Positions 10,890-60,270 are shown, counted from the first letter of the stretch. The stretch: 64,000 nt of DNA from an uncultured bacterium (GCA_963825135.1 CAWGRW010000010.1:64001-128000), one strand, 5' to 3'. Made by a program: numbers and translations. The notes: generated by a model not told the origin, from the letters alone.

Positions 10890-12262
10890 TTTTCCCCTCC
10901 CCCTACACAAGGGAGAGGGTGAGGGTGGGGGTTACCACGTTAATCTTATCTTTAACCTTTAATTCCTTCCCCCCTGCGAGGGGGAAGGTTAGGATGGGGG
11001 GCACCTTGGCCAAATAAATCAAAACCGGCTTTGCCTTTCAATTCATTTCGCTCGATCGTGCCTGAACAAAAATAGTGCGAGCGGGGGTGTCATTTCGAGC
11101 TTAAGGCGAGAAATCTATCTTTGCCTTTTCTTCCCCGACATTACAGAATTTGCGTCACATTGTTTCCCTCCCCCTTCCCAAGGGGGAGGGTGTGGGTGGG
11201 GGTTTACCTTATCAGCCGTCAATCCAGAGAGTCTTTCTCTTTCCAAGGTCAGCAGTCCAATTGAAAGATTTTAGCTTAAACATAAGATTTTTAGCGTAAT
11301 TCTGTAGTCGGATTGATTTTTGCTTCTTTTCATCAAGGAAAAGAAGGATAAAAAAATAGCCTTTCACCTTTCTTTGTCTTTCCGAAAGGCCCACGGCAAT
11401 CTCTCCCTCCCCTCCGCCGCGAGAATAATAGAAGCGATACCGAACCCGTTCACCCTGAGCGCACACGAAGTGTGCCGTCGAAGGGCACATTATCCGTCAT
11501 TGCGAGGCTTCGCAGAAGCCGCGGCAATCTCATATTTAAAATTTATTTCCCTCCCCATCACATACCCGAGAGGGGGAGGGTTAAGGGTGGGGGTGTCACC
11601 TTTCATACATTAAATCATGCTTAAGTCTTTCTCTTCCCCGACATTACAGAATTTGCGTCACATTGTTTCCCTCCCCCTTTTCAAAGTGGGAACGGATGCG
11701 AGCGTGCAAGCATTCAGTCGCTCTTCCAACAAAGTCCGTGAGGCATATTAACCCCCCGCTCGACGATGCCTGAGCCAAAATAGTTCGGGTGGGGGTTTAC
11801 CTTATCAGCCTATCAATCCAGAGAGTCTTTCTCTTCCCGACATTACAGAATTTGCGTTAAGAAAATCGATTGTACGAGCGTTAAGAATCTTACGTGGGCA
11901 GGGGTGGGATCGAAAGATTTAGCGAGTACATGAGATTTTTAGCAAATTATGTAGTCGGATGATTTTTGCTTCTTTTCATCAAGGAAAAGAAGGATAAAAA
12001 AACAGCTTTTCACCTTTCTTTTGTCTTCCCGAAAGGCCCGCGGCAATCTCTCCCCCCCTCCGCCGCGAGAATAATAGAAGCGATTCCCTCCCCCGTTCGC
12101 CCCGAGCCTGTCAAAAGGTCGAAGGGTGGACGCGAGTCATTTCGAGCACAGCGCGGCAACCACATATTTAATATTTTTCCCCTCTCCCCTTTTTTGAGGG
12201 CGGGAGAGGGCCAGGGTGAGGGGGTACCATATCGTAGGAGCGGCTTCCAGCCGCGATTCATT
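10890..12262 (+). repeat. Mosaic palindromic repeat array with internal tandem duplication
   Basis: Several CCCTCCCC..GGGTGGGGG modules, core at about 11837-11958, GTAGGAGCGGCTTCCAGCCGCG (GTAG-type REP) near 12234. Confidence 0.9.
11691..11782 (+). mobile_element. About 90-nt nested insert, type C
   Basis: AAC-GGATGC-loop-GCATTC-(A/G)GTCGC plus tail; also at 21612 and as a variant at 16732; empty equivalents near 11167 and 37023. Confidence 0.65.
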
Positions 12263-12320
12263 AAGTTACTTCTGCGGATTTATTTTTAATCCTGTATATC
12301 AAACAATTAACATATAAATT

Positions 12321-12550
12321 GCAATAGCGGCAATAGAAAATCGCATAATCCGGCCGGCTCCCGCCCGTCGTACCCAACGCCTCACACCATGTCTCACACC
12401 ATTACGCAATAGCGGCAATAGAAACGCCGTCTTTCTCCCCACGCCCGAGCAATCCGCATCCAAACCATTCGCAATAGCGGCATTAGTAACGGCCGATCGA
12501 CCCTCACATCGGAGATTGCCCGTCAACGAATCCGCAATAGCGGCATTAAA
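12321..12550 (+). repeat. Four spaced GCAATAGCGGCA(A/T)TA direct repeats
   Basis: Starts at 12321, 12406, 12471 and 12534, with unique intervening sequence. Confidence 0.8.
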
Positions 12551-12556
12551 ATCCCG

Positions 12557-13588
12557 TCACTGCCCGCCGCTTCCGAGAAACTCGGTCACCTGCGCCGGAG
12601 TCACGTCGAGCGTATCCGCGTCGTGCTCCCCGCCCTCGGTTATCGATATCACGTTCGTCACGCCCGCCGCGTCGAGCGCGTCCTCGAGATCGACCGCCTG
12701 CATCCAGGGCACGAAGCAGTCCTTCGTCCCGGCCGCGATAAACACGGGCGGGTCCCCGGCGTCGACGTGCGTAACCGGGCTCGCCTCGTCGAGGTCGTTC
12801 TCATCGCAACCGCTGAGAGGGTCCTGCAGATTGTCAGGCACCGGACATTCGAGGAGCGCCCAGATCGGGAGCGGGTTAAGCTCGATCCCGCAGCTCCCTG
12901 TGAGCAGCACGTCGAGCGCCTCGTCCACGATCGTATCGAAATCATACGGCCCGTAGAAGAGCACCGCCGCGGCGACATCGCTCGAAGCCCCGGGGTTCAC
13001 CGTCCCCTCGAGGTCCGCGACGCCCGACGATAGCGCGATCATCGCCGCCAGGTGAGCTCCCGCCGACTCCCCCGTCACTATTATCGCGTCCGGGTCGACG
13101 CCCAGCTCCTCCGAGTTCAATTTAATCCACCTCACGGCGGACTTCACCTCCCGGATAATCCCCGGCCAGTCCTCCGCCCCCTGCCCGACGAGCCTGTACC
13201 CGACCGATATAAGCTGAAACCCGCCGGCCTCCGCTATGTCAAACGCTATCCCCTCTATGTTCTCCTTCGAATTGATCACCCACCCGCCTCCGTGAAACCA
13301 CACGAGCGCGGGCCTCGGCGCGGATACGCCCTTTATCCTGTACAGGTCGAGCGTCTGTCTCTCCGTCCCTCCCTCCACGTAGAAAAACGTCTCGGGCTCC
13401 GGAGCGAGCGTCCCCCCCGTCTCAATATCTATGCCCGGGCCGCTCCCGTTCCCGCCCCCGCCGCCGGTGCCGCCGCCGGTCCCGCCGCCGTCGCACCCGA
13501 TCGCCGCCGCTGCCGCGCACAATATCAGGAACATCACGAGCGCGCGGATATTGTCGCTCCACTCGTTCTTTTTTTCACGGATATTCAT
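12557..13588 (-). CDS. Alpha/beta hydrolase (HSL-type esterase), probable lipoprotein
   Basis: HGGGW, GESAG, GTKD..VP and GGEH; lipobox-like AIGC followed by a Gly linker. Confidence 0.9.
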   Translation of the reverse strand: MNIREKKNEWSDNIRALVMFLILCAAAAAIGCDGGGTGGGTGGGGGNGSGPGIDIETGGTLAPEPETFFYVEGGTERQTLDLYRIKGVSAPRPALVWFHGGGWVINSKENIEGIAFDIAEAGGFQLISVGYRLVGQGAEDWPGIIREVKSAVRWIKLNSEELGVDPDAIIVTGESAGAHLAAMIALSSGVADLEGTVNPGASSDVAAAVLFYGPYDFDTIVDEALDVLLTGSCGIELNPLPIWALLECPVPDNLQDPLSGCDENDLDEASPVTHVDAGDPPVFIAAGTKDCFVPWMQAVDLEDALDAAGVTNVISITEGGEHDADTLDVTPAQVTEFLGSGGQ

Positions 13589-14173
13589 ATCATCCTCCCT
13601 CGTATCGTGGAGATACCCTCCATACATTATACAGGGTGCTATCGGCGGAAGAAGCTGTTTTTTATAGACGCGTGCGGCTCGACTACAGGCCGCGTTACAT
13701 GCACTTGCAATCCCCCCGCCCGCCCCCTTCCTTTAACAAACCTAAAGTGATTTCTCACCGACCCCGGGACGTGCCTTAAAGTAAAGCGAATACTGTTCAA
13801 GAACTGTCTTTAATGTCCTATCTTAACTATTATATATATTCCGGACAGGCGCTTAGCCCTCATATTTTATATATACTTTATATTACATCATATCCATTCT
13901 AAAACACTTAATAAAACTAACGTAACGATCAAGCCCCTACTCCAGAATTTACTTTAACAGAGGAATCTCTCTCCCGCCCTTTCGGAAATAGGGCGAACCG
14001 TGATTAAGGCGGGTTAGCAGACCCGTTCACGACCCGGATCCCCGGTTAGTCCTCCCCCGCGGAGTGCGTCACCGGACACTCCCGGCATCTTTATGATTAT
14101 TTAAGAATTCAATTGACAGCTTCATCGCTTATCAGATTTCACCAACAATTTTCAGAATTCAACAAGATGCTAC

Positions 14174-14202
14174 TTGACACTGCAGTGTAAGGACGCAATA
14201 AT
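14174..14202 (+). promoter_or_regulatory. Sigma70 promoter
   Basis: TTGACA-17 bp-AATAAT. Confidence 0.6.
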
Positions 14203-14208
14203 TAAAAA

Positions 14209-14506
14209 TATTTTGCCGGGGCGTAAATTTTCATCGATAGCGATTAAGAGAGAGGGTTCGCTGTCATGGAATGATTCGAGAAGAGGATATTCAATACCCG
14301 TACGGAAACCGCTTTTGATCTCTTCATCTTAATTCTCCTTGCTAACGGCAAGCTCGAATCAAGAAGCGTAAGCACATTTCATCATCGTTCTCAGCCGTTG
14401 TGTAACTACCGGACCGAGAGCGAATAAGACCATGGATTTCACGCGCTAGTATTAACTCGCTCCGTCTCCCTCTACCGCCAGAATGGGGGGGACGGGGCGT
14501 TTTTTT
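14209..14506 (+). ncRNA. Candidate structured RNA of about 300 nt
   Basis: Bounded by a promoter and a terminator, no sizeable sense ORF, several stems. Confidence 0.4.
14458..14506 (+). terminator. Intrinsic terminator
   Basis: CGCTCCGTCTCCC...GGGGGACGGGGCG followed by T7; G-U pairs fix the + orientation. Confidence 0.8.
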
Positions 14507-14628
14507 GCCGGACGGGGTTGAGTTCCCCAACTTGAGCCCATTTCCCCGATTTGCCGCCCCCCCTTCCCAACCGCCCCCTTCTTCTGATAGACTATCCTTT
14601 TAGCCAAGAAGTCCCTGGGGTGAACAAT

Positions 14629-15510
14629 ATGATATTGCTGACCGGCGCTACGGGCACGACAGGCCGTAGAGTCGCCAGGCGTTTGACGAAATGGGGTTAC
14701 AGGTTTACAGCAATGGTCCGCGAGCCCGAAAAGGTCTCCGGGTTAAAGTCCTCAAAAGTCGAGCTGATTAAAGGAGATTTCAAAAAGCCTGACTCTCTCA
14801 GGAGAGCGATGGAGGGGATCGAACACGCGTTTCTCCTCCCGCCCAACACCGAGAACCAGTTCAAGCTCGAGAGGAATTTCATCGACGCCGCCAGGGAATC
14901 GGGCGTCAGATACCTCGTCAAGTACTCGGCCATAGGCGCCGATCCCGACTCCCCCGCCCGCCTGCTGAGATGGCACGGCGAGGCGGAAAAGTATCTGGAA
15001 CAATCGGGCCTGCGGTATTCCATCGTCCGCCCGAACATATTCATGCAGAATTTCACGAACCTCTACGCGAGGCTGATAAGGGAGGAAAAGGAGTTCAGGC
15101 TGCCGTTCGGGGACGCGCGGTGCGGATGGGTCGACGTGAGGGACATAGGAAGGCTCATCGCCAGGATGCTGACGGAGAACGGGCACCAGAACAACATACT
15201 CACCGTAACGGGCCCCGAAACACTGAAGTGTAAAGACCTGGCCGAAATCCTCTCCCACGCGGTGGGCAAAAAGATTGAATACGTGGACGTGAAGCCCAGG
15301 GAATTCAAAAAAGAGATGATTGAAACGGGCGTGCCCGAAATTATGGCCGAAGCGGCAACGGAGCTTTTCAAGCTCGTCAGCGACGGTCTCTGTGACGCAG
15401 TCACCGACACCTTCTATGAAATTACAGAGAAGCAGCCCCGCACCTTCGAGGAATTCGTCGACGACAACCTTACCTTCTTCCTCAAGAAGAAAACCAAATC
15501 GAAAAAATAA
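14629..15510 (+). CDS. NmrA-like/atypical SDR NAD(P)-binding protein
   Basis: ILLTGATGTTG, IVRPNIFMQN, VDVRDIG, VTGPE. Confidence 0.9.
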   Translation: MILLTGATGTTGRRVARRLTKWGYRFTAMVREPEKVSGLKSSKVELIKGDFKKPDSLRRAMEGIEHAFLLPPNTENQFKLERNFIDAARESGVRYLVKYSAIGADPDSPARLLRWHGEAEKYLEQSGLRYSIVRPNIFMQNFTNLYARLIREEKEFRLPFGDARCGWVDVRDIGRLIARMLTENGHQNNILTVTGPETLKCKDLAEILSHAVGKKIEYVDVKPREFKKEMIETGVPEIMAEAATELFKLVSDGLCDAVTDTFYEITEKQPRTFEEFVDDNLTFFLKKKTKSKK

Positions 15511-15524
15511 TTTTTACAATTCGC

Positions 15525-15895
15525 GGGAGCGGCTTTCAGCAGCGTCGCACGTAGTGTGCGCATATACGCGTCCTTCGAACCTCCACCGCCCAATCCAGCG
15601 ACCGCCGCACAACCCGTTAGGCGAGCCTGTCAAAGGGTCGAATGGCGCAGTTTTATTCCCTCTCCCTCCACAGGAGGGGAGAGGGCCAGGGTGAGGGTGT
15701 ACCTTAGATAAATAAACAATAAATCCGTTCACCCTGAGCATAGCCTATCCTGAGCGAAGTCGCAGAATATTCCTTGATTCCCCTCTCCCTCCACAGGAGG
15801 GGAGAGGGACAGGGTGAGGGTGTACGACCGGTGGAATTAATTCCCGTTTCGCGCCGTTCACGGAATTTGCGGCGGGCGCACCCCTCCGGCGCCGC
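15525..15895 (+). repeat. Mosaic palindromic repeat array
   Basis: CCCTCTCCC..GGGAGAGGG..GGGTGAGGG twice, plus CCGTTCACCCTGAGC. Confidence 0.8.
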
Positions 15896-15946
15896 GCCAT
15901 AAAAGTCAGTCGGAATTATTACGAAAGACCAGGCGAATGCCCCTTC

Positions 15947-16519
15947 TCAATACCACCAGTACCGCCTTGGATACGGCCCCCAGTAGTATGGCCCGGGGAA
16001 CCGGCATACCCTGTATCCCGTGTACCAGTTATAGTGGCACACGGCCCCGTCAGGCGCGACCCACCAGTCTATGAACACCGATGTGAGCCCGCCTTCGGGC
16101 GGCATCTTCCCGTCGAGCACCTTCACGTCGTACGTAAGGTCGCCCTTCTCGCTCAGGGCCGGGTTGGAAAGCTCGACGACCACGTCCGCATCGGTCATAC
16201 CTTCCCTATCGCCGATTATGGACAGGTTGGCGTTAGGCGGGTCGTTCTTGAAGCTGTCCTTCCCCTCGTCCCACATCTTGAGGAAATGGGTCGTCGGGAA
16301 ATGCCCCGCCATCCTCTCGGGCCTGTCGGCGAAGAACACCATCGAGGGCGATACGTTCTTTAAGGTCAGCTTCCCGTCCTTATACGACATGGACGTCGCC
16401 GTCTGGACGAAAAGGAAGCTGTACGGGGTCTGGCCCGCGTTCCCCTGCTGGGCGAATGACGCCGTAGAGAATACCGTCAACAAAATTACTGCCAGCGAAG
16501 CAATTACCGTTCTTGCCAT
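15947..16519 (-). CDS. Secreted hypothetical protein with Tyr/Trp-rich C-terminal tail
   Basis: Signal peptide; FLFVQTA, FADRPER and DPPNANL conserved-looking motifs. Confidence 0.8.
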   Translation of the reverse strand: MARTVIASLAVILLTVFSTASFAQQGNAGQTPYSFLFVQTATSMSYKDGKLTLKNVSPSMVFFADRPERMAGHFPTTHFLKMWDEGKDSFKNDPPNANLSIIGDREGMTDADVVVELSNPALSEKGDLTYDVKVLDGKMPPEGGLTSVFIDWWVAPDGAVCHYNWYTGYRVCRFPGPYYWGPYPRRYWWY

Positions 16520-16657
16520 ATTACACCTCTCGAAAATGTAATTTCGGATACCGATTTGCCTAATATTACCATCAATCCCGCCGGGTTTATAAACCGAATT
16601 TGTAATCCGGATAATTTTCTTCCGGATCTCCCCCGCTAAACCCGGCGACCAGGCCAA

Positions 16658-17262
16658 ATCCGTTCACCCCGAGCGCACACGTAGCGTGCTGTCGAAGGGT
16701 CTTCTTTAATTTCCCTCCCCCTTAGAGGGGGAACGCTTCGAGCAAGCAAGCAGTCGGTCGCTCTTCCAACAAAGTCCGTGAGGCATATTAACCATCTCCC
16801 GCTTGCGAGCTTGGCGAGATGGTACCTGAGCCACGAAGATAGTTCGAGTGGGGGGTGGTTACGATTACACTTCAACCAATCCAGAGAAGTTCGGCTCTTT
16901 TCTTCCCGACATTACAGAATTTGCGTCAAGAAAATCGATTGTACGAGCGTTAAGAATCTTACGTGGGCCGGGGCGGGATCGGAAGATTTAGCGAGTACAT
17001 GAGATTTTTAGCAAATTATGTAGTCGGATGATTTTTGCTTCTTTTCATCAAGGAAAAGAAGGATAAAAAAAACAGCCTTTCACCATTCTAGTCTTTTCAT
17101 GATCTTTTCATAGACCACTTTAGGTGCACGGTGTTTTCAGAACCCACACTATGTGCGTTCATCAAGGAAAAGAAGGATGAAAAAAACAGCTTTTCACCTT
17201 TCTTTATCTTTCCGAAAGGCCTACGGCAATCTCTCCCTCCCCTCCGCCGCGAGAATAATAGC
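16658..17262 (+). repeat. Mosaic palindromic repeat array
   Basis: Core at about 16906-17027; right end overlaps the MFS gene 3' end. Confidence 0.9.
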
Positions 17263-18460
17263 CGCTAGTATCGCCACCCCCGCAAGCGCGACCAGAGGCA
17301 GCCTGAGCGCGAGCGCCGCAAGGAGCCCCGCCGCTAACCCCGAGAGCGCCTCCGCTCCCACGAGGATCGACTGGTTATTCCCGAGCACGCTCCCCTGCTC
17401 GTCCGCGCTTACCATCAGCGAAAGCATCGACGCGCACGCGGGCAGGGCCACGGCGATCGCGAGGCCGGGCAGGAACAGCGTCGCCCAGAGCGCCCCTTCC
17501 TGCCGGGGCAGCAATATCAGCGGCATTAGTATCCCGAGCAGCGCCGTCGAGTAAATGGTTATCTTCCTCGCAGAGAACCGCGTCGCCAGGTATCCCGTCA
17601 GCCACACATTGGCCAGCACGATTGGCACAGCTACCCACGCGATGAAATCGGACACCCTCCCCACTCCCATATTGTAGCGGTCGACGAGATACATGGGGTA
17701 CGCCCTGAAAAATCCGAATATGGAAAAGTAGATGAGAAAATTCACGAGATATACGGTCCTTATCCGCCCGGCAGCTGAATATCGTAAGCATGTTTGTGAA
17801 CGCTTCGGCGTAATTTGTCTTCGCCCCGGCATCGGGCGTGCGTGTTTCTTCGAATACGTAGTAAGTGAACGCGAGGGCGAATAGCAGGAGTATGAATACC
17901 GCCCAATACGGGGTCGCGTAATCGAACCACGGCATGACCGCCGGGTCCGCGAGCTTCCCTCCGACGAGTGGCCCGGCGACGAATGCGCCGCTCCCGCTCA
18001 GGTACATATATCCGAAAAGCCTGCTCCTGTTCTCCTCGGTACTCACGTCGGCGATCGCGCTCTGGGCCGTCACGATGTCGGCGTCGGCGAGCCCCATTAA
18101 AAGAGAGATACCCATGAGCGCGGGCAGGCAGTTCAACTGAAGCGAAATTGCGAAGAGGGCGTAGCACATCGCGATGACGGCCAGCGAGACGAGGAGCACC
18201 GGCCTTCTTCCGAACCTGTCCGACATCGCGCCCATCACGGGCGAGCCCAGGAACTGCCCCAGCGGATAGAGCGTTAGAAGCACTCCCAGCACGATTGACC
18301 TGTCCGCATCGAACGGCAGCGAGTCGAGTATGCCCCCGCTGTTGTCGAGGATCATGGGCGTCATGATCGCCGTCATCAGGCTGTAGCCTATGAACCCTAT
18401 GAATATTACGAAGTAGAGCGGGAGTATCTGAAGAAAGCCCGATTTCCGGTTGTCTGTCAT
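17221..18460 (-). CDS. MFS drug/H+ antiporter (TetA-like), frameshift near 17775
   Basis: Motif A GAMSDRFGRRPVL, GPLVGG; the C-terminal six TMs are in ORF 17221-17832. Confidence 0.85.
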
Positions 18461-18507
18461 CGCGTTAACCCCGGCCAGCCGCATGAGATTAACCGCCAAA
18501 CGGAATC

Positions 18508-19287
18508 TTGTCATTCCCGGCCGGGCGGGGAAACAAGTATATCGCAGGAGCGGCTTCCAGCCGCGGCACATGCGTAGTAAGGCACAGAACCCGTGCTCGT
18601 GCACATTCCCTCCGAATCTCTTCCGGTCATACCGGCAACGAAGCCAGACCCGTTCGTTCTGAGCTTGTCGAAGAACAATTGCGAGCGAGTGAGCAATTGG
18701 TCGCCCTTGCTAACCTTGTATCGAAGATTATTGAAACGGTCAATGAGCCAATGATATGTCAGCGGCGACACTCCACCCGTTCACCCCGAGCGCGTACGAA
18801 GTGTGCTGTCGAAGGATCTTCCTTAATTCCCTCCCCCTCAATAGGAGGGGGGAGGGTTAGGGTGGGGGTGTACCTAGATATGTAAAACCGTTCGTGCTGA
18901 GCTAGTCGAAGCACGTCACCGACATTACAGAATTTGCGTTAAGAAAATCGATTGTACGAGCGTTAAGAAATCTTAGTGGGCTGGGGTTGAATTGGAAGAT
19001 TTAGCTGAGAACATGAGATTTTTAGCAAATTCTGTAGAGTTCGGACCACATGTGATTTTTGCTTCTTTTCATCAAGGAAAAGAAGGATAAAAAAAACAGC
19101 CTCTCACCTTTCTTTTCTTTTCATTATCTTTTCATAGACCATTTAGGTGCACGGTGTTTTCATTAACCACACTACGTGTGTGGTGTGTGATTTTTGCTTC
19201 TTTGTATCCAGACAAAGAAGAAAATAATATTGTCTTTGTCTTTTCTTTGTCTTTCCGAAAATCGCCACAGAATCGCGGCAATTCCCC
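18508..19287 (+). repeat. Mosaic palindromic repeat array
   Basis: Core at about 18919-19038; array ends at the stop codon of the next gene. Confidence 0.9.
18674..18763 (+). mobile_element. About 90-nt nested insert, type G
   Basis: AAC-AATTGC-gagcgagtga-GCAATT-GGTCGC plus unique tail, placed after GTCGAAG; empty equivalent at 33441-33469. Confidence 0.6.
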
Positions 19288-19560
19288 CTACTCCGCCATC
19301 AAAAACGCCTTTATCCTCTCCTGAGGATCGATGGACAAAACGAGATAGCATAATATAGATACCGCAATCACAATCACGGCCGCGATGACGATCAGGCCGG
19401 CCCTGCTGAAGTTCCTCCTGTTGGGGTCGATCCCCCTGCCGAACGACCAGTATAGCAGGACCGCCACGTTAAGCATCGGCACCAGAGCGACTATTATCGT
19501 TACCATCCAGCCCGGTACCGAAATCGGCTTCATATCCGTGCCGGTCGTCCCTGAATTCAT
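19288..19560 (-). CDS. Small membrane protein
   Basis: ISVPGW...LVPMLNVAVLLYWSF...NRRNFSRA, two to three TM segments. Confidence 0.75.
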   Translation of the reverse strand: MNSGTTGTDMKPISVPGWMVTIIVALVPMLNVAVLLYWSFGRGIDPNRRNFSRAGLIVIAAVIVIAVSILCYLVLSIDPQERIKAFLMAE

Positions 19561-19874
19561 CTTCCTCTCCCGTCATAAAGAAATATTTCAAACCCTAATG
19601 CCCGGCCGCCGGAGGCTTTTCAAGCTCATCAAAACTCCGGTTATCCGCCTCCCTCCCTCAAATCCGGTTCGGTCGTTCCCGGCGGTCTTTACCGGGGATC
19701 CGTTCTCGCGCTTAGCGGCCGCGAGCGCGCCTGAAAATATATACGAACCGTCCCGTCATAAAGTTTTATGTTGCGTTCGCGCCGCCCCGCTCCCCTCTGC
19801 TCTTTTTCATTGTTAACCCTCCCGTTTCATGTTACGTTGAAAGTAGCGTCTGAGAACCAACCGGAGGTCGCGGC

Positions 19875-21380
19875 ATGAAAAATTACTCTTTAATCGCTTT
19901 TGCGGTGTTATCCCTATTGGTTGCGTCATGGGTCGGGGAGTCCCGCTCCGCCGATGAGGAGCTCGACGGGCTCGACGCCTTCGTCGAGCTCGCGATGGAG
20001 CAATACGGCGTCCCCGGCGCGTCCGTGGCGGTCGTAAAAGACGGCGACGTCGTATATCTCAAGGGATTCGGCGTGAGGAAAATCGGCAGTAAAGAGAAAG
20101 TCGACGGCGACTCCGTATTTCAGCTCGCGTCGGTTACGAAGACCTTCACCGCCGCATCGGTCGCCTCGATGGTCGACAGGGGCAAGATGAGCTTCGACGA
20201 GGAGGTCATAAAGATAATCCCCGACTTCGCCCTCATGGAGCCCTACTCCACCCGCTTCACGACCCCGCGGGACCTCCTCGCGCACCGCACCGGACTCCCC
20301 CCGTTCACGGGCGACATATTCGACCACCTCGGTTACTCCCGCGACGAGGTCATCAGGCGCGTCCGTTACTTCACCCCCGCCTGCAGCTTCAGGGAGGACG
20401 CGAACTATTCCAACATCGGCTACTTCCTCGCGGGCGAGACGGCGGCCTATGCCGCCGACTCCTCCTGGGAGGACGTGGTGACGGAGAACATAATAAAGCC
20501 CCTAGGCCTCAAACACACGGGTTTTACGTACGATATAGAAGAAGAGGACAACGTCGCCTACCCGCACGCGGATGTGGACGGAGAGACGAAGGTGATTCCG
20601 TTCAACGAGCAGAGGGTGCTCGCACCGGCGGGCGCGATGACTTCGTCGGCGTCCGACCTGGCCCGGTACCTCATCATGTACCTGGACGAGGGGAAATTCA
20701 GGGGCAAGGAAATACTCAGCGCCGAATCGGTAAAGCAGTTATTCACCCCAGCGATCGTGGACAAACCCTCATTCGCGGAATTGCCCCCTATCTCCGATGA
20801 CAACGGGTTCAGCTACGGCCTCGGATGGGGCATCTACTACTGGCATAACCACAAGATTCTGGAGAAAGGCGGCGCGCTCGACGGATACAGGACCGTGGTC
20901 GTCCTCGTACCGGACATGGAGCTCGGCATAGTGGTGCTTTCGAACATGAACCTCACGGTATTCCCCGAGGCCGTGCGCGCGTTCGTGCTGGAACAATACC
21001 TGGGCGAGGCGGGCTTCGACATGCAGGAAGCCATCATGGAAAGGTCCAAGAAAATAGCGGATATGATTGGCACGGACAGGACCGTCCAGCCTAAAGACCC
21101 GCGCCCGCCGAGCAAGGACCTCGACGCATACACGGGCACCTACGAGAACGACCTCTACGGCCGGTTCACGGTCGAGAAGGACGGCGACGCCCTCAGGATC
21201 GAGGCGGGCCCCGCGAAATACGCCGGCACGCTCACGCACGTCAATTACGATACGTTCTACCTGAGCTGGCCAGTATTCATTTCCGTCCCGGATCAGGTTT
21301 CCTTTATAATTGACGCCGGGGGGAACATTACCGAGTTCATAGACGATTCCCTCGGCAGGTTCAAGAGGGTGAACGAATAA
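19875..21380 (+). CDS. Serine hydrolase, beta-lactamase-related family, with DUF3471-like C-terminal domain
   Basis: Signal peptide, FQLASVTK, LLAHRTGL, YSNIGY, YGLGW, YTGTYENDLYG. Confidence 0.92.
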   Translation: MKNYSLIAFAVLSLLVASWVGESRSADEELDGLDAFVELAMEQYGVPGASVAVVKDGDVVYLKGFGVRKIGSKEKVDGDSVFQLASVTKTFTAASVASMVDRGKMSFDEEVIKIIPDFALMEPYSTRFTTPRDLLAHRTGLPPFTGDIFDHLGYSRDEVIRRVRYFTPACSFREDANYSNIGYFLAGETAAYAADSSWEDVVTENIIKPLGLKHTGFTYDIEEEDNVAYPHADVDGETKVIPFNEQRVLAPAGAMTSSASDLARYLIMYLDEGKFRGKEILSAESVKQLFTPAIVDKPSFAELPPISDDNGFSYGLGWGIYYWHNHKILEKGGALDGYRTVVVLVPDMELGIVVLSNMNLTVFPEAVRAFVLEQYLGEAGFDMQEAIMERSKKIADMIGTDRTVQPKDPRPPSKDLDAYTGTYENDLYGRFTVEKDGDALRIEAGPAKYAGTLTHVNYDTFYLSWPVFISVPDQVSFIIDAGGNITEFIDDSLGRFKRVNE

Positions 21381-21410
21381 CTACCGCCTCGCCTCCGCCC
21401 GGCCTGCCTT

Positions 21411-22130
21411 GTCATTGCAACGGTTCTGATGAATAAGAAGAACCGGTCGCTGCTGGCTGATTGCATTCAAGCTGCTGTGCCATGGGACGAACCTGCCAAA
21501 TAAAAGCTGCGAAGCAGCGCGGCAATCTCGCCTTTTCTTCCCCGACATTACAGAATCTGCGGCGGGTGCTCACCCGCACATTAATTTCCCTCCCCCCTTT
21601 TTTAAAGTGGGAACGGATGCGAGCGTGCAAGCATTCGGTCGCTCTTCCAACAAAGTCCGTGAGGCATATCAACCCCCCGCTCGACGATGCCTGAGCCAAA
21701 ATAGTTAGGATGGGGGTGGTCACCTTACCCCCCAATCAAGCAAGAAAGCCTTTTCTTCCCCGACATTACAGAATTTGCGGCGGGCACACACAATGTGTGT
21801 CTCTACGATTCTTCCGTAACTCCTCTGCTCAACCAGCAACGAAGCCCAACCCGTCCGTGCTGAGCTAGTCGAAGCACGTTACCGACATTACAGAATTTGC
21901 GTCTAGAAAATCGATTGTACGAGCGTTAAAAATCTTCCACGGGCTGGGGTTGAATTGGAAGATTTAGCGAGTACATGAGATTTTTAGCACAATTCTGTAG
22001 TCGGATGATTTTTGCTTCTTTGTATCCAGACAAAGAAGAAAATAGAATTGTCTTTGCTTTTTCTTTGTCTTTTCGAGAACCACACTACGTGTGTGATTTT
22101 TGCTTCTTTTCATCAAGGAAAAGAAGAGGT
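21411..22130 (+). repeat. Mosaic palindromic repeat array
   Basis: Contains inserts A and C, three CCGACATTACAGAAT joints and a core at about 21882-22003. Confidence 0.9.
21419..21508 (+). mobile_element. About 90-nt nested insert, type A
   Basis: AA(C/T)-GGTTCT-loop-AGAACC-GGTCGC plus tail, inside GTCATTGC...GCAATCT; also at 24578, 30322, 57832, 59414 and partially near 44390. Confidence 0.65.
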
Positions 22131-22181
22131 ATTTATCTTTCCTTTTTTTATTGTAATACCGGAAAGCGAATCAGCACCCCG

Positions 22182-22439
22182 TCAAGGCCCTTCGCACGGC
22201 ACGTTTGGCGGCGTGTCGTTACCCATATACGACGCGCACCTCTCGAGGTCGGCGCAGCTTATCTTGTTCTGCTTGCTCGCCGGGTCCATAGCCTCGTACG
22301 CCTCGACGCTCACAGGAATGTTATTGCAAATGCTCATGTCGAACCCGTCGTCCTTCTGCGCGCTCTCGTTCTGACCCGCACACGCGCCGAGCGCGAAAGC
22401 CCCGATCACGAGCGCCTTACATAGATCCTTCTTCGTCAT
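22182..22439 (-). CDS. Small Cys-rich lipoprotein
   Basis: Lipobox LGAC; SD AGGAGG. Confidence 0.75.
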   Translation of the reverse strand: MTKKDLCKALVIGAFALGACAGQNESAQKDDGFDMSICNNIPVSVEAYEAMDPASKQNKISCADLERCASYMGNDTPPNVPCEGP

Positions 22440-22579
22440 GCCAATCGTCCCTCCTGTAAATTATGCTGAAGCCGCAATACATTATACACCCGATAGCGAA
22501 ATAAATTAATCACCCCCCATCACCCCATTGCCATTCCCCCGGCGCCGATTATATTTTTCCGGAGCGGTGGAATACCACA

Positions 22580-22945
22580 ATGACCGATACGAAACACGGC
22601 GCCGGAAGCGAAAATCGCCACGCCGGAGACGTCGATAAATACTACTACTACCTCAACATGATAACGGAGAACGTCCGTAACGGCTATAACCTCATGGTCG
22701 TCAAATACTGCGATCTCTCCCTGCCCCTCATCCCCTCCCTCATCGAACAGACGCTCCGAGATTCGGGCGAATTCGACATCACGAATATCCCCGCGATCGA
22801 GCTCGGGGCGAAGATATGGAGCCATCAGGGGAGGAGAGACAGGATAGACGAGCTCGCGCGGCTCGTCTCCGCCCATCCGGAGCTCGCCCCCTGGCGGATA
22901 CACATCGACCGCGCATACGCCGTACTCAGCGAAGCGGAAAAATAA
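22580..22945 (+). CDS. Hypothetical protein
   Basis: 121-aa ORF with host-like codon usage. Confidence 0.65.
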   Translation: MTDTKHGAGSENRHAGDVDKYYYYLNMITENVRNGYNLMVVKYCDLSLPLIPSLIEQTLRDSGEFDITNIPAIELGAKIWSHQGRRDRIDELARLVSAHPELAPWRIHIDRAYAVLSEAEK

Positions 22946-22979
22946 ACCCCCTGCAACCCGCTCTTTTGTCTTTTTAGCG

Positions 22980-23460
22980 GCACTCCGGAATTTGCGGCGA
23001 GTGAGCACCCGCGGGCATATCATCTCTACCTCCCCCTCAGCTCAATCAACTCTCGTAGCCAAACCCGTTCGTGCTGAGCTAGTCGAAGCACGTTACCGAC
23101 ATTACAGAATTTGCGTTAAGAAAATCGCGTGTTTAAGCGTTAAGAAATCTTTGAGCAGTCCAATTGAAAGATTTTAGCTTAAACACAAGATTTTTAGCGT
23201 AATTCTGTAGTCGGATGATTTTTGCTTCTTTGTATCCAGACAAAGAAGAAAATATATTGTCTTTGCTTTTCATAATCCAAACTACGTGTGTGATTTTTGC
23301 TTCTTTTCATCGAGGAAAAGAAGGATTAAAAAAATCATCCTTTCACCTTTCTTTTCTGTCTTTCCGAAAGATCACATTGCGCTTGCGTCGCAGCTGGCCT
23401 GTCCAAGACTCGATCCTACAAGGGTTTGTCATTTCGAGGTAAAGCCGAGAAATCCATCTT
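22980..23460 (+). repeat. Mosaic palindromic repeat array (covariant core variant)
   Basis: Core at about 23096-23213 with a GTGTTTAAGC/GCTTAAACAC stem. Confidence 0.9.
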
Positions 23461-23567
23461 TTCCCTCTCGACATTCCCAGAATCCTCTGCAATCCCTCCG
23501 CTCTCCCTCCCCACTTTGAATTTCCCTCTCTATCCATTATTCTTTTTAGCTACATCCAGAGGAGCAC

Positions 23568-24389
23568 ATGAGCAGAACATTGATCGGAATCTTCATCGCA
23601 GCGGCGCTGCTGGCGGCGCTGGCGCATCCCCTCCCCGCCCTTTCCCGGGACATGGACGGCTCCATGCTCGCGGAGAGTCCCGCCGGGAAGCCGGCCGATA
23701 ATCCCGCCCCGCCCCCGGGCGCGGCGAAAGAGCTCACCCTCGACGAAATTCTGGCGAAATACTACGGAGCGATAGGCGGGCTCGGGAACTGGGAGTCTCT
23801 CAGCACCCTCGTCATCAAGGGCACGATATTCTCCCAGAACGCGGAGATAACGACGACCGGCGAGTACATGCGCCCCGACAAGTGCAGGGTGTCGTATAAA
23901 ATAGGAGGCAAGCTCGTCGTTCAGTCCTTCAACGGCGAGACCGCCTGGCAGCAGAGCGCCCTATCGAAAAGCGTCGCGCCCGAAACCCTCGACGCCGAGC
24001 GCACTAATTACCTACGCGACAGGTGCGGCATAGAGAGCCCCCTCATCGACTACGCGAAAAAGAACCTCAGGGTTACGCTCGAAGGCAAAGACCTCGTCGA
24101 CGGCAAGGACTCCTACAAAATCAAGGTCACTTACTCTTCGGGAAATTTCCAGTACTACCTGCTCAACGCCTCGTCGTTCCTCCCCGTGAAAACGGTCGGT
24201 TTTTACAACGTAGGCGGAAAGCAAGTCGTCATGATGACCAGGTTCAAGGAATACAAGAGGGTGGGAAGCATCCTCGTCCCGTTTAAGCTCGCGATAGAGA
24301 AAAAAGGGAACGCGCCGCGCGAAGAATACGTCGTCGAATCCGTCACTCCCAACGCCCCCCTCGACCCCGCAATATTCAACATGCCCTGA
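23568..24389 (+). CDS. Secreted LolA-like (outer-membrane lipoprotein-sorting family) protein
   Basis: EILAKYYGAIGG, RPDKCR, FNGETAW, YKIKVT, LVPF, LDPAIF. Confidence 0.75.
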   Translation: MSRTLIGIFIAAALLAALAHPLPALSRDMDGSMLAESPAGKPADNPAPPPGAAKELTLDEILAKYYGAIGGLGNWESLSTLVIKGTIFSQNAEITTTGEYMRPDKCRVSYKIGGKLVVQSFNGETAWQQSALSKSVAPETLDAERTNYLRDRCGIESPLIDYAKKNLRVTLEGKDLVDGKDSYKIKVTYSSGNFQYYLLNASSFLPVKTVGFYNVGGKQVVMMTRFKEYKRVGSILVPFKLAIEKKGNAPREEYVVESVTPNAPLDPAIFNMP

Positions 24390-25130: not shown

Positions 25131-25227
25131 GAAATTCCACAAATCAGATGTATTATTAACCCATACGCCCGGCTCCCGTCCGGCCGCCCTGCACGGGTCG
25201 CTTTCGAACCGGAACCATCGCCCAACA

Positions 25228-25962: not shown

Positions 25963-26125
25963 CCTTCGTATTTCTCAGGTTTTTCATTATGGTCCGCAAA
26001 ACGCGCCGTCGCACGTCCGCCCGGTCTCCGGCCCTCATCGAGAAAGGCCTTTAAATTCCTATTGTAATTCGCGCTTTTTACTATAATCTTCAATAACATA
26101 TCTATACTAATTCAGGAGCGGTCCG

Positions 26126-26989: not shown

Positions 26990-27157
26990 GGCGCACGCGC
27001 GCCACGCTGCGTGCGTCATTTCATCGAGGAAGTGAAGAACAAGCTATTCGTCTTGTGTCCTGAATCCTGACACCTCGGAGTGCGCCGATTGCCGCCTCCG
27101 GCCGTATGCGCGCCTGAAACATGAAGGATCACGGCAGGATACGGAGAATGATCCGGA

Positions 27158-52856: not shown

Positions 52857-54420
52857 TGCGGCACACAATGTGTGCTCATATATGATCCTTCCGAAACTCT
52901 TACGCTCAAACCAGCAACGTAGCCAAACCCGTTCGTGCTGAGCTTGTCGAAGCACGTACACACATATTGCGGCACACAATGTGTGCTTTACGATCCTTCC
53001 GAAACTCCTACGCTCAAACCAGCGACATAGCCAAACCCGTTCGTGCCGAGCTTGTCGAAGCACGTTACCGACATTACAGAATTTGCGGCGGGTGAGCACC
53101 CGCGGGCATACGATCTCAAACATCTCCTTTCCTGTCATTTCGAACGCAGTTCAGCGTGCGCGCAACTGGTGACGTTGTTGATTGCAAGTAACTCTAATTG
53201 ACACCGTACACGATCTGCACAATCCAAAACGAGAAATCTGTCTTTGCCTTTGGTATTAATTCCCTCCTTAAAAAACGATCGAACGGGCGAGCATTCGGAC
53301 CTATCTCAAAGAGCACAGAAGTAACTTACCTTCCAGCTCCATCCTTCTGAAGTCGTTAGGGGGATTAGCTTTACCCCGTTCGTGCTGAGCTTGTCGAAGC
53401 ACGTACACACATATTGCGGCACACAATGTGTGCTTTACGATCCTTCCGAAACTCCTACGCTCAAACCAGCGACATAGCCAAACCCGTTCGTGCTGAGCTT
53501 GTCGAAGCACGTTACCGACATTACAGAATCCGCGGCGGGTGAGCACCCGCGGGCATACGATCTCAAACATCTCCTTTCCTGTCATTTCGAACGCATGTTG
53601 CAGCGTGCGCGCAACTGGTCGACGTTGGTTGATTGCAAGTAACTCTAATTGACACCGTACACGATCTGCACAATCCAAACGAGAAATCTGTCTTTTGCCT
53701 TTGGTATTAATTCCCTCCTTAGAAAAAGGAGGGCTAGGGAGGATTTAGCTTTACCCCGTTCGTGCTGAGCTTGTCGAAGCACGTTACCGACATTACAGAA
53801 TTTGCGGCGGATGAGCACCCGCGGGCATACGATCTCGAGCATCTCCTTTCCTGTCATTTCGAACGCACGGGAGAAATCTGTCTTTTGCCTTTCCGACATT
53901 ACAGAATTTGCGTTTAGAAAATGGATTGTACGAGCGTTAAGAATCTTACGCCGTTCGAGCGAATGCAAGTCGAAGTACTGTTACCGAGCGTTGCGAGAAT
54001 TAGCGTCGAATCGCGCCGATTGTACGAGCGTTAAGAATACTTCATGGAAACCGAATGCAAGCGAGCGCGCATTCGGACACCCTCTCCTATCCGCACGACG
54101 TTAGTTAGCCACGGACATCGCTAAACTATTGCTCCGATGGGGCGGAATTGGAAGATTTAGCGAGTACATGAGATTTTTAGCACAATTCTGTAGTCGGATG
54201 ATTTTTGCTTCTTTTCATCAAGGAAAAGAAGGATAAAAAAACAGCCTCTCACCGTCTTCTAGTCTTTTCATCTGATCTTTTCATAGACCACTTCACTAGC
54301 GTGCACGGTGTGCTTTCATAATCCAACACTATGCGTGTTCATCGAGGAAAAGAAGAGAGCAATCTCGCCTTTAATTGTTTCCTTTGTCTTGCCTTTTCGG
54401 AAGACCACACTATGTGTGCC
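52843..54420 (+). repeat. Mosaic repeat array with about 400-bp tandem units (noisy sequence)
   Basis: Units start near 52928, 53376 and 53755. Confidence 0.85.
53143..53229 (+). mobile_element. About 90-nt nested insert, type H
   Basis: Inside GTCATTTCG...GAGAAATCT; second copy at 53590; empty site at 53853-53880. Confidence 0.5.
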
Positions 54421-57774: not shown

Positions 57775-58606
57775 TCCCCATATTAATGGGAGGGTCCGGG
57801 TGGAGGTCTACCTCATTATTTTTGTCATTGCAACGGTTCTGATGAATAAGAAGAACCGGTCGCTGCTGGCTGATTGCATTCAAGCTGCTGTGCCATGGGA
57901 CGAACCCGCCAAATATAATCCGCGAAGCAGCGCGGCAATCTCGTCTTTTGCAATTAATTCCCTCCCCCTCAATAGGAGGGGGGAGGGTCAAGGGTGGGGG
58001 GTTTACATTACAATCCAATCAACCAAGAAAGTCTTCTCTTCCCGACATTACAGAATTTGCGTCAAGAAAATCGATTGTACGAGCGTTAAGAATCTTACGT
58101 GGGCTGGGGTTGAATTGGAAGATTTAGCGAGTACATGAGATTTTTAGCAAATTCTGTAGTCGGATGATTTTTGCTTCTTTTCATCAAGGAAAAGAAGGAT
58201 AAATAAAACAGCTTTTCACCTTTCTTTGTTTTTTCTTTTCGAAAGTTCACACAACGTGTGTCTCTACGACTCTTCCGTGACTCCTCAGCTCAACCAACAA
58301 GCGAAGCCAAACCCGTTCGTGCTGAGCTAGTCGAAGCACGTTACCGACATTACAGAATTTGCGTCAAGAAAATCGATTGTGCGAGCGTTAAGAATCTTAC
58401 GTGGGCTGGGGTTGAATTGGAAGATTTAGCGAGTACATGAGATTTTTAGCAAATTATGTAGTCGGATGATTTTTGCTTCTTTTCATCAAGGAAAAGAAGG
58501 ATACAAAAAACATCCTCTCACCTTTCTAGTCTTTTCATAAAACACACAATGTGTGCTTCTTTTTTGCTTTATCTCACCAAGCACAATGAAACACATCGCG
58601 GCAATC
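57775..58606 (+). repeat. Mosaic palindromic repeat array
   Basis: Insert A; cores near 58042 and 58344; ends at the next stop codon. Confidence 0.9.
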
Positions 58607-59317
58607 CTATTCCTCCTCCCTCCCCTTTCCCCAATCACTCTGCCAATACTCGTACGTGTCCGCGTCCATTATAGTGAGCCTCCCGTAGGTCCCCGCGCCT
58701 GTGTCGAGGTTCCAGAGGTTGGCCCTCCTCACGGGCTTTCCGTCCGGGTACTCGCGCAGAGTCTTCGTGTGCCCTATGAACACGTCCCTGTAGGGGAACC
58801 TGAGCCCTCCGATCTCGTAGATCGGCGCGAGTATTGCGTACGTCTTTCTGTCCGAGTAATAAACGTCCGGGTCGGGCTGCTTGTAAAGCGGGTAATCCCA
58901 GTCAAGGCCCGCGTGCACGTAGAGCCTCGCCGCTTCGTCCACGTGATAGAGGACGCACTTTTTCGAGGCGAATTCGAGGTGGCTTTTCATGCGCCGGCGG
59001 TCGCTCTTGGTCTGCCCGCCGCCGTATGAATACATTATCGTAACAAGCTCCTCGAATTTCCAATCGCCGAGCGTCCGCTTCCCCCTCCACTCTCCCCGGA
59101 GCCAGGACAGCGCGAGCGCGTCGTGGTTCCCGAGACACCAGACGAGGTCCCTCACCTTCATCAGCTCCTCCACGCACTCGGCCGAATAGGGATGGCCGTT
59201 GTACACGTCGCCCAAGGTTATGAGCCTGTCCTTCTCCGGGTCGAAGCCCGAGCGCTTGAACACCTGCCTGAGCGCGCTCAGGTTCCCGTGTATGTCCCCT
59301 ATGACCAGCGTACGCAT
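58607..59317 (-). CDS. Metallophosphoesterase (PPP/ApaH-like)
   Basis: GDIHG, LGD, GNHD, HAG, GHT, LDTG. Confidence 0.92.
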   Translation of the reverse strand: MRTLVIGDIHGNLSALRQVFKRSGFDPEKDRLITLGDVYNGHPYSAECVEELMKVRDLVWCLGNHDALALSWLRGEWRGKRTLGDWKFEELVTIMYSYGGGQTKSDRRRMKSHLEFASKKCVLYHVDEAARLYVHAGLDWDYPLYKQPDPDVYYSDRKTYAILAPIYEIGGLRFPYRDVFIGHTKTLREYPDGKPVRRANLWNLDTGAGTYGRLTIMDADTYEYWQSDWGKGREEE

Positions 59318-59405
59318 CCAAGCAGTATTCTCGTTCCCGCCGCCGTTTTCAACCCGGAACTTTTTCTTCCGTATTTACTATTCGCATCCCATCGCTAATA
59401 TTTTT

Positions 59406-60270
59406 GTCATTGCAATGGTTCCGATGAATAAGAAGAACCGGCCGCTGCCGGCTGATTGCATTCAAGCTGCCGTGCCATGGGACGAACCTGCCAAATAAAA
59501 TCTGTGAGAGCAGCGCGGCAATCTCGCCTGTTCCTTTAATTCCCTCCCCCCTCCATAAGGGGGGAGGGTGCGGGTGGGGGGTTTACCTTAATATGCCTGT
59601 CAGCCTTTTCTTCCCCGACATTACAGAATTTGCGGCGCACACGCACATAGTGCGTTTCTATGATTCTTCCGTAACTCCTACGCTCAAACCAGCGACGTAG
59701 CCCAATCCGTTCGCCCCGAGCGCACACGAAGTGTGCCGTCGAAGGGTCTCTTCCCTTCAATTTCCCCCTTAGAAAAAGGGGGATTAAGGGGGATTTAGTC
59801 TTTTCTTTTTCCCCGACATTACAAAATTTGCGGCGGGTGCTCACCCGCACATTAATTCCCCTCTCCCTTGAGGGGAGAGGGTGAAGGGTGAGGGTGTACC
59901 TTATCACTACTATCAATCTAGAAGTCTTTTCTTCCCGACATTACAGAATTTGCGTTAAGAAAATCGATTGTACGAGCGTTAAAAATCTTCCACGGGGTGG
60001 GGTAGAATTGGAAGATTTAGCGAGTACATGAGATTTTTAGCAAATTATGTAGTCGGATGATTTTTGCTTCTTTTCATCAAGGAAAAGAAGGAATTAAATT
60101 AGCCTTTGTCTTGTCCTTCCTTAGTTTTGTCTTTCCGAAAGATCACACTACGTGTGTTCATCAAGGAAAAGAAGGATTAAAAAAATATCCTTTCACCTTT
60201 CTTGTCTTTTCATTACCTTTTCATAGACCATTTAGGCGCACGGTGTTTTATAAACTACACTACGTGTGTG
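59406..60270 (+). repeat. Mosaic palindromic repeat array
   Basis: Insert A; core at about 59935-60056. Confidence 0.9.

Follow-up and report, generated by a model that had tools for sequence, protein, structure and literature searches.

A family of about 90-nt inserts with a covarying hairpin head, nested in the palindromic intergenic repeats of a Dadabacteria lineage

The intergenic DNA of an uncultured bacterium of the Dadabacteria (assembly GCA_963825135.1) carries a family of non-coding inserts of about 85-95 nt, each made of a constant hairpin head and a partly conserved tail, which interrupt short palindromic repeats at fixed points. These inserts were analyzed in a stretch of 64,000 nt, hereafter the window, corresponding to positions 64001-128000 of a 224-kb contig (C10; CAWGRW010000010.1), and throughout the 3.13-Mb genome to which it belongs, which is assembled in 17 contigs and is 94% complete. 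The family resembles several known systems and belongs to none of them; it is an undescribed small, structured, non-autonomous repeat. We assign a probability of about one half to the reading that the insert is a lineage-specific, non-autonomous mobile mini-element that depends on a hairpin folded from single-stranded DNA.

Copies were located with a covariance model, R1, which was built from 39 representatives drawn from the whole genome, spans 95 positions, and contains the head stem as its only structure. When run on the window without filters, R1 returned 21 matches on the plus strand (E 4e-16 to 2.4e-3) and none on the minus strand at E<=1. A strict pattern (AAC, GAC or AAT, then a perfect 6-bp stem with a 9-12-nt loop, then GGWCRC) matched 14 times on the plus strand, with no match of the same form on the minus strand. 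The family had been proposed in an earlier note made from the window sequence alone, and R1 recovers all 21 of the copies listed there, at or within about 20 nt of where they had been placed. The six stems quoted in that note (GGATGC/GCATTC, AATTGC/GCAATT, TGCTTC/GAAGTA, GGTTGC/GCAACT, GATTCC/GGAATC and GGTTCT/AGAACC) likewise read in the sequence as described. A second model, R2, was trained solely on window copies, 17 in number; in this genome it recovered 23 of 23 loci whose tail types are absent from the window, units of the arrays adjacent to tRNA-Arg and tRNA-Glu among them, and the family thereby passes the check on the linking of tail types that the note had proposed. R2 also matches copies in related genomes and in phages, always on the expected strand.

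The head consists of AA, a 7-bp stem enclosing a purine-rich loop of 10-11 nt, and then GWCGC, the seventh base pair being formed between the C of AAC and the first G of GGWCGC. The sequence of the stem is free to vary so long as its arms pair. An earlier alignment had been chosen for perfect pairing, such that its 100% pairing was circular, and the covariation was therefore recounted on a set of 79 model matches, drawn from the window, from loci in 11 relatives, and from four phage-like records. In this set, 98.5% of 547 stem cells are paired and five of the seven pairs have changed on both sides. Doubly changed cells number 114 versus 35 +/- 7 in shuffled alignments, none of 500 shuffles reaching 114, and control registers slid along the sequence are paired in 11-58% of cases. 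The covarying stem reported in the earlier note is thus borne out by a larger set of copies.

The pairing also carries information on strand. The stems of the 107 copies on the two large contigs comprise 689 Watson-Crick pairs, 38 G·T pairs, 6 A·C mismatches, and 16 other mismatches. Because a G·T pair on the strand bearing AAC corresponds to an A·C mismatch on the opposite strand, the ratio of 38:6 suggests that folding of the AAC strand has been maintained. This is indicative of the AAC strand being the folding strand and points to a single-stranded form. No second shared structure was found in the tail: RNAalifold applied to 44 representatives yields only the head stem on either strand, and single-strand DNA folds of 36 representatives agree on the head alone, with no conserved second or 3′ hairpin. 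Consistent with the earlier impression that no catalogued family matches, Rfam gave no match in the window at gathering scores, and a search of 20 insert loci at E<=1 returned only neighboring tRNAs and two chance matches of 19 bits.

Intergenic DNA in this genome forms a chain of short palindromic modules, and inserts reside in at least five module families, in each case at one fixed point and in one orientation. The spacing between module arms is bimodal. For P1 (GTCATTGC...GCGGCAATCT), 30 copies have fewer than 30 nt between the arms and 20 copies have 70-119 nt; the corresponding numbers are 62 and 16 for P2 (TTCCCTCCCCC...GGGTGGGGGTG) and 26 and 7 for P4 (ATTCCCTCC...GGGAGGATTTAG), whereas P3 (...AATCTT...GAAGATTTAGCGAG) has 68 copies of fewer than 30 nt and 14 filled copies in all (lengths 88, 107-109, and 203). 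Filled and empty modules therefore coexist, and the empty ones are the majority. An example of the empty P3 form, evident from the sequence, lies at 11868-11945 on the plus strand, its conserved arms being about 21 nt apart. Twelve flank haplotypes occur among the 14 filled P3 copies, six of which share their haplotype with some of the 68 empty ones. The P3 site is used by two different inserts, with three central nucleotides of the empty form being replaced. P1 exists in variants with covarying arms (ATTGCG/CGGCAAT, ATTCCCGA/TCGGGAAT, ATCCTGAA/TTCAGGAT, and ATTTCGA/CGAGAAAT), and the insert always occupies the loop. Most intergenic stretches, including window positions 21381-22140, additionally contain at least six other families of short palindromic modules, such as CCCGACATTACAGAATTTGCG and GTGCTGAGCTTGTCGAAGCAC, together with the long P3 palindrome, and some of these other modules exhibit clean indels of 76 nt and 83 nt between strain-variant contigs of the assembly (C11 versus C10 and C13 versus C9).

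All 21 window copies are on the plus strand, and they were sorted by tail type (scores are those of R1). Type A copies occupy the REP-like (repetitive extragenic palindrome) hairpin of P1 (GTCATTGC...GCGGCAATCTC) at 21419-21513 (62.9 bits), where a beta-lactamase-family gene lies 39 nt before the insert, and at 30322-30416 (57.2 bits), 57832-57926 (59.7 bits), and 59414-59508 (38.6 bits), with a degenerate copy at 24578-24671 (23.3 bits, E 9.8e-4). Type B copies are found in P3 modules (AATCTT..GGAAGATT) at 28061-28154 (46.2 bits), 35643-35736 (43 bits), 37482-37575 (48 bits), 44667-44760 (48.3 bits), and 54050-54143 (35.2 bits). The P2 hairpin (CCCTCCCCC...GGGTGGGGG) harbors type C at 11691-11786 (58.7 bits, E 2.5e-13) and 21612-21707 (66.9 bits), a type C variant whose tail is partly replaced by another small palindrome at 16732-16825 (28.2 bits, E 4.5e-5), and type D at 41887-41982 (68.7 bits) and 44061-44156 (69 bits). 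Type F resides in the P4 hairpin (ATTCCCTCC...GGGAGGATTTAG) at 36852-36947 (64.3 bits) and, in degenerate form, at 53274-53364 (24.4 bits). The single type G copy follows ...GAGCTTGTCGAAG of a P5 module at 18674-18768 (51.1 bits), and type H occupies P1-like modules (GTCATTTCG) at 53590-53686 (33.9 bits) and, again degenerate, at 53143-53235 (21.9 bits at 53164-53235). Type E, in a P2 module at 40596-40690 (36.8 bits), carries in its tail a second, inverted head-like hairpin (CAC-ATGCTC-loop-GAGCAT-GGTCAC) that gives a match at 40682 on the minus strand. It is the sole doublet in the family that resembles a REPIN (a REP doublet forming a hairpin), and two more type E copies are present on C10 and C13.

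The tails had been described as comprising at least eight mutually unrelated types, a description that has to be given up. Five of the 28 pairs of window tails score z>3 relative to shuffles (C-D 7.9, D-F 5.3, A-H 3.7, B-G 3.3, and C-F 3.2), and on these scores tails C, D, and F are homologous, as are tails A and H. Genome-wide, many tails begin with NNNTGGYTGATTGCAA after GGWCGC and have CCAAAAYA near the 3′ end. Tails do not form a headless family of their own, since the 17 tail matches without a model match that were examined proved to be degenerate or truncated heads, nested hosts, or copies outside the scored candidates.

Heads and tails are combined in many ways. The 94 copies on the two large contigs whose head could be parsed form 39 clusters by head (single linkage, at most two mismatches) and 60 by tail. 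Ten different tails, in P1, P2, P4, and tRNA contexts, are attached to the 10 members of one head cluster, and identical 26-nt heads occur on tails that cannot be aligned. Chimeras can be recognized individually. At C10 133671, a P2 left flank and a type C head give way at GGTCGC to a different tail and a P1 right flank, and in the window copy at 28061 the type B tail follows a head (subfamily GATTCC/GGAATC) that belongs to the other P3 insert. The proposed confinement of each tail type to one module accordingly holds within the window but not beyond it: the left flank of one tail type can be P1 or P2 (C10 133671 versus 209292), and a tail subfamily of the phage-like records (...ATCYAGTACCGCTCGAAAGT...) is found in P1-like, P2-like, and P4-like modules. 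In one phage copy, P1 sequence flanks the insert on the left and P2 sequence on the right. That one phage tail subfamily occurs in three kinds of module speaks for movement of the unit itself from one kind to another.

Sites of insertion include the loop or 3′ shoulder of REP-like modules, the head loops of other copies, the 3′ ends of tRNAs, and the last codons of IPTL-CTERM genes. In nested copies, as judged by eye, the 5′ junction follows position 4 or 8 of the host loop, and the last 4-6 nt of the host 3′ arm are retained. Inserts are located at the last codons or stop codon of seven IPTL-CTERM paralogues (...IPTLSEWGMIAAAAGLMLVGVFFAVRKR), and a related copy that is about 82% identical is empty at that site. 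These seven genes (IPTLSEWGMI...GVFFAVRKR) map to 147.6-148.7 kb on C10, where three are in tandem, and to 13.7, 664-667, and 2208 kb on the 2.79-Mb contig (C9); the overlap with the insert alters the residues that follow the basic anchor. Also on C9, tandem arrays stand directly 3′ of tRNA-Arg(ACG), tRNA-Glu(UUC), tRNA-Arg(CCU), and tRNA-Arg(UCU), the array loci being at 86 kb, 331 kb, 368 kb, and 2203 kb. Units of the arrays run antisense to the tRNA, each terminating in 9-15 nt that repeat its 3′ end. At C9 2201986-2205250, broken tyrosine-integrase frames lie upstream of tRNA-Arg(UCU), and a second copy of the 3′ end of this tRNA, with the same nested insert pair, lies 1.8 kb downstream, such that the region looks like a small, decayed, insert-bounded island.

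The ends of the insert are largely as had been proposed. No general target duplication is apparent, 104 of 136 copies being without a flanking direct repeat of at least 6 nt, and long flanking repeats are seen solely in the tRNA arrays and at one other site. A small loss of target is also upheld, with 0 to about 7 nt replaced (assessed partly by eye, in nested copies). Left flanks vary (GGGGG, GCGG, AAAG, CCCC, TTGC, GAGG, GAAG, and others), and there is no conserved target of 4-5 nt. The stated absence of terminal inverted repeats is correct in general, as the head and the 3′ ends are unrelated in 45 aligned cluster representatives and 36 folded representatives, but it does not extend to type E, with its inverted hairpin.

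R1 was also applied to the remainder of the genome and to 60 relatives. This genome contains at least 138 copies (the best 150 of 598 candidates were scored), and insert density on the 224-kb contig is about 10 times that of the main contig. Among relatives, 27 of 32 sampled members of the Dadabacteria family to which this genome belongs (f1) have the insert (9/9 of genus g1, 7/7 of g4, 1/1 of g5, 3/3 of g6, and 7/10 of g2), as does the one genome of a second family (f3); the insert was found in none of 27 genomes from six further families of the order. Copy counts for the relatives rest on the best 69 candidates per genome, and for many genomes they are lower bounds. A motif scan of species-representative genomes retrieved mostly metagenome-assembled genomes (MAGs) of Candidatus Dadabacteria or Thermodesulfobacteriota, with single, probably chance, matches elsewhere. 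The insert also occurs in four phage-like IMG/VR records, with 7, 12, 6, and 6 copies (31 in total). Terminase genes are present in two of these records, one of which has tail-tube genes as well, and no integrase was found in the four records, which are only 17-39% complete. The records carry palindromic modules of the host in addition to the insert, and their inserts occupy modules of the same kinds as in the host genome.

The orientation of the inserts is strongly biased in some regions. Whereas the earlier note had all copies in one orientation, this is true of the window (21 of 21) and largely so of C10 (37 plus versus 7 minus), but not of the 2.79-Mb contig, where 32 copies are on the plus and 33 on the minus strand. 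At five syntenic loci of genomes of the same genus, 27 of 27 copies are co-oriented with those in the window. Each phage-like record is uniform (31 of 31), its copies being antisense to the terminase and tail genes in the two records that have them. The AAC strand is the C-rich strand in the window (GC skew -0.03 to -0.21), at the loci of relatives (+/-0.10-0.12), and in the phage-like records, whose strand asymmetry is very strong (+/-0.16-0.25). Because the window genes that flank inserts lie on either strand, transcription does not set the orientation there. The strand bias is read as regional and possibly linked to replication.

Comparison of related sequences reveals considerable turnover at sites that carry the insert. 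In each of three species, the beta-lactamase-family gene is followed at the orthologous spot by a P1-type module that holds an insert; the arms, heads, and tails differ among the species, one of which has a nested second copy. The 15 small contigs of the assembly are variants of stretches of C9 and C10, and because they are mostly 93-98% identical to parts of these large contigs they are strain variants within a metagenome-assembled genome, whose repeats break the assembly. C5 is the sole small contig lacking a match of at least 600 nt to C9 or C10; the others among C1-C8 and C11-C17 are variants of repeat-rich parts. Even where strain-variant contigs share about 95% identity in their unique DNA, a given intergenic stretch can hold different modules and inserts in each.

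The insert appears to be non-autonomous and without coding capacity, as had been proposed, in that this genome yielded no long copy with an open reading frame (ORF). Of 90 strict heads, 88 precede short tails of the usual kind and the other two were judged by eye to be chance matches, and longer fillings of modules are, again by eye, nested multiples. The classes of enzyme that the earlier note had suggested fare poorly, as none tracks the insert. Y1 HUH transposases (PF01797) are absent from this genome and present in 5 of 32 f1 genomes and 0 of 7 genomes of g4, a genus in which every genome has the insert; they are commoner in other families of the order (22 of 28 genomes), where only one of the 28 genomes has the insert. 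The IS110 DEDD domain (PF01548) was detected in 0 copies here, in 6 of 32 f1 genomes, and in 1 of 7 g4 genomes, and reverse transcriptase (PF00078) in 0 copies, 8 of 32, and 0 of 7, respectively. The IS91-type Y2 HUH domain (PF04986) was found neither in this genome nor in the 21 f1 genomes searched for it, 3 of them from g4, in a search whose controls were also 0 and whose sensitivity is unproven.

Tyrosine recombinases are represented by XerD (386.7 bits), XerC (336 bits), phage-type integrases beside tRNAs, and a third, divergent Xer-like protein. No integron integrase was identified, the TIGR02249 scores of 159.7 bits (XerD) and 142.2 bits (XerC) falling short of the NCBIfam cut-off of 265. 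The third Xer-like recombinase (C9 698153-699007) is a single-copy gene of 285 aa that scores below every NCBIfam cut-off. As a candidate enzyme it is unsupported: besides 28 of 32 f1 genomes, it occurs in five of the six genomes of family f7, where the insert was found in 0 of 6, and in the insert-free f1 genomes G011, G022, G024, and G026.

How might such a unit spread? By analogy with integron attC sites or the ends of IS200/IS605 elements, the head would be recognized as a folded single strand, namely the AAC strand, and the targets would likewise be recognized as folded hairpins. Insertion would be tied to one strand being single, probably through coupling to replication, which would produce a regional strand bias. 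The border between the head and GGWCGC may serve as a preferred cross-over point at which heads and tails reassort. The enzyme would act in trans and would fall outside the classical families tested, being either a conserved host function or an unrecognized protein. That the insert defines a new class of mobile DNA, in which an element of about 90 nt defined by a folded hairpin invades hairpin loops and the phages of its host and is moved by a host or unrecognized protein, is a more tentative proposition, and we regard it as somewhat unlikely.

A number of observations weigh against a mobile element of this kind. No circle, excision product, or new insertion has been observed, and none of the enzyme classes searched for accompanies the insert. 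Variable small deletions of the target are unusual for conservative recombinases and for HUH transposases. The G·T excess derives from copies that are not independent and that were detected with a model trained on stems containing G·U. Orientation and GC skew are not associated on the 2.79-Mb contig, where 32 copies agree with the skew and 33 do not, 12 of these 33 being in tRNA arrays. No indel of at least 60 nt found between strain-variant contigs corresponds cleanly to one unit gained or lost, and the sole filled/empty pair, at about 82% identity, may consist of paralogues. Contigs from four public DNA runs, compared with window positions 11000-30900, were short and stopped at repeats or formed joints between repeat copies, and public data included no RNA run. 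Finally, tail types in the host genome mostly keep to one module type, a pattern that homology-driven spread would also give.

The last of these points bears on an explanation without transposition, in which the insert is a building block of repeat mosaics comparable to bacterial interspersed mosaic elements (BIMEs) or neisserial mosaic elements, is spread by homology-dependent conversion or by annealing of single strands at replication forks, and reaches new contexts solely through rare illegitimate recombination, with its hairpin acting as a recombination hot spot. The association of most tail types with a single module type in the host genome would follow naturally, as would inserts that share one site without duplication or inverted ends, the failure of any transposase to track the insert, and the chimeras whose left and right flanks come from different modules, with the break at the head. 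Intergenic chains of the other palindromic modules also vary between strain contigs, and a strand bias is to be expected if single strands like those of the lagging strand anneal. What such a process leaves unexplained is the compensatory 7-bp stem, with G·T on one strand only, across subfamilies, genera, and phages; the occurrence of the insert in at least seven unrelated contexts, including tRNA ends and coding 3′ ends; and the single phage tail subfamily in three module types. As the main rival, a mosaic origin is unlikely in our view, albeit deserving of some weight. A role as a structured RNA or as a protein-binding DNA motif kept by selection, such as a small RNA, a processing or stabilizing element, or a nucleoid or topoisomerase site, is improbable. 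Compensatory change with an excess of G·U is typical of an RNA stem, the insert persists across a bacterial family, and its arrays behind tRNAs resemble the tRNA-linked repeats of Escherichia coli, one of which yields an RNA. However, orientation ignores neighboring genes, all 21 window copies being on the plus strand between genes of either strand, and individual copies are antisense to tRNAs and phage structural genes yet sense in the IPTL-CTERM genes. Most modules lack the insert, which interrupts repeats, its own copies, and coding ends, and Rfam offers no match.

There is similarly only a small chance that the insert is a derivative, resembling a miniature inverted-repeat transposable element (MITE), of a Y1-HUH element of the IS200/IS605 or RAYT (REP-associated tyrosine transposase) type, of an IS91 Y2 element, of an IS110 element, or of a reverse transcriptase system encoded elsewhere or left unassembled. 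According to titles cited in PMC2817692, IS621 and IS1397 insert into palindromes, and a hairpin end, the lack of inverted ends and duplication, and a fixed orientation are features that the insert would share with a derivative of this type. Its 3′ end is A-rich and, by eye, meets the target at short matching runs, and multi-copy genes are often missing from MAGs. Set against this, Y1 (5/32), IS110 (6/32), reverse transcriptase (8/32), and Y2 (0/21) are far from matching the distribution of the insert in f1 (27/32), and the seven g4 genomes, all of which carry the insert, include none with Y1, one with IS110, and none with reverse transcriptase. A genome that is 94% complete has none of the four enzyme domains, and the insert has neither a conserved left target of 4-5 nt nor a conserved second hairpin at its right end. 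A classical Y1, Y2, IS110, or reverse transcriptase partner is thus largely disfavored, and an element dependent on a single-strand hairpin is the reading that we prefer.

Two features of the window stand apart from the insert family. Overlapping frames at 1168-2115 and 1886-2476 (together 1168-2476) both match Peptidase_M64, possibly reflecting a frameshifted gene or a sequencing error. At 8372-9064 there is a fragment of an rve-type (DDE) integrase core, 230 aa in length, which is probably the remnant of an insertion sequence (IS) and is unrelated to the inserts.

Much of the intergenic DNA in an uncultured lineage is made up of this family, which breaks assemblies and so matters for binning and annotation. 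Since the usual enzyme families are absent alongside the insert, either an unrecognized enzyme or a housekeeping function would have to move it. No description of the family was found in the literature on small dispersed repeats, on SDR5 and HIP1, on Dadabacteria repeats, on tRNA-linked repeats, or on REPIN, RAYT, IS1397, and PATE (palindrome-associated transposable elements).

Among known systems, REP/REPIN-RAYT repeats and BIMEs are, like the insert, short and numerous intergenic sequences that form hairpins and persist vertically within a lineage, and the host modules described here correspond to REP-like palindromes chained into mosaics of the BIME type. The insert differs from REP and REPIN sequences in that it is composed of one hairpin and a long asymmetric tail rather than a symmetric doublet (type E excepted), and the sequence of its stem is free; the RAYT-type Y1 domain (PF01797), moreover, is missing from this genome and sporadic in f1 (5 of 32). 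Unlike a classical MITE, the insert lacks both terminal inverted repeats, other than in type E, and a short target duplication of fixed length. It has neither the conserved left target nor the conserved 3′ hairpin of a PATE derived from IS200/IS605, nor is there a Y1 gene. An IS91-like, rolling-circle element would call for a Y2 HUH protein, of which this genome has none in a search of unproven sensitivity, and a retro-element mobilized in the manner of a short interspersed nuclear element (SINE) would call for a reverse transcriptase, of which it also has none.

IS621 and IS1397/ISKpn1 are autonomous elements of 1.3-1.5 kb that encode their transposase. Insertion of IS621 (IS110 family) and of IS1397/ISKpn1 into REP-like palindromes is site- and orientation-specific, according to titles cited in PMC2817692. 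The insert resembles these elements in its placement within the loop or at a fixed site of REP-like palindromes, and differs from them in having no ORF, while this genome lacks the IS110 DEDD domain, which occurs in only 6 of 32 f1 genomes. The small dispersed repeats (SDRs) of the Nostocaceae, said to have been described by Elhai and colleagues in 2008, are reportedly non-coding sequences of 21-27 nt with a shared structure and compensatory changes, and reportedly insert into other repeats and into themselves. We know of no enzyme for SDRs, which to our knowledge are confined to cyanobacteria. The Nostocaceae SDRs are cited in PMC5861425. The likeness is one of behavior only, in that both are structured non-coding repeats with compensatory changes and nesting; the insert, in contrast, is about 90 nt in length, has a constant head and divergent tails, is found in Dadabacteria and in phages of theirs, and forms stacked arrays behind tRNAs.

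Integron attC sites resemble the head in architecture, being structure-defined sites with a covarying stem, conserved unpaired flanks, one folding strand, and an AAC start, and the formation of arrays at a fixed entry point with a strand bias is a further parallel. Here, however, there is no GTT core opposite AAC, no integrase above the cut-off, and no cassette ORF, and nucleotides of the target are lost.

The tRNA-linked repeats (TLRs) of E. coli comprise the 178-bp repeats of tyrT/tyrV and related sequences, and the origin of such arrays has been a question since the 1970s. The C9 arrays resemble them in lying in tandem 3′ of a tRNA, with units that end in a copy of the tRNA 3′ end. This arrangement is found at the four C9 arrays only and not at the 21 window copies, and no tRNA gene was found on C10. 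Beyond the arrays, the insert departs from TLRs in being dispersed as well (at least 138 copies), nested in palindromes and in itself, present in phages, and equipped with a covarying hairpin. Were the insert indeed a new mobile class, the origin of tRNA-linked repeat arrays would be accounted for as well. Arrays linked to tRNAs, inserts nested in REP-like palindromes, and phage-borne repeats, which are usually treated apart, belong here to a single sequence family with a shared structural signature.

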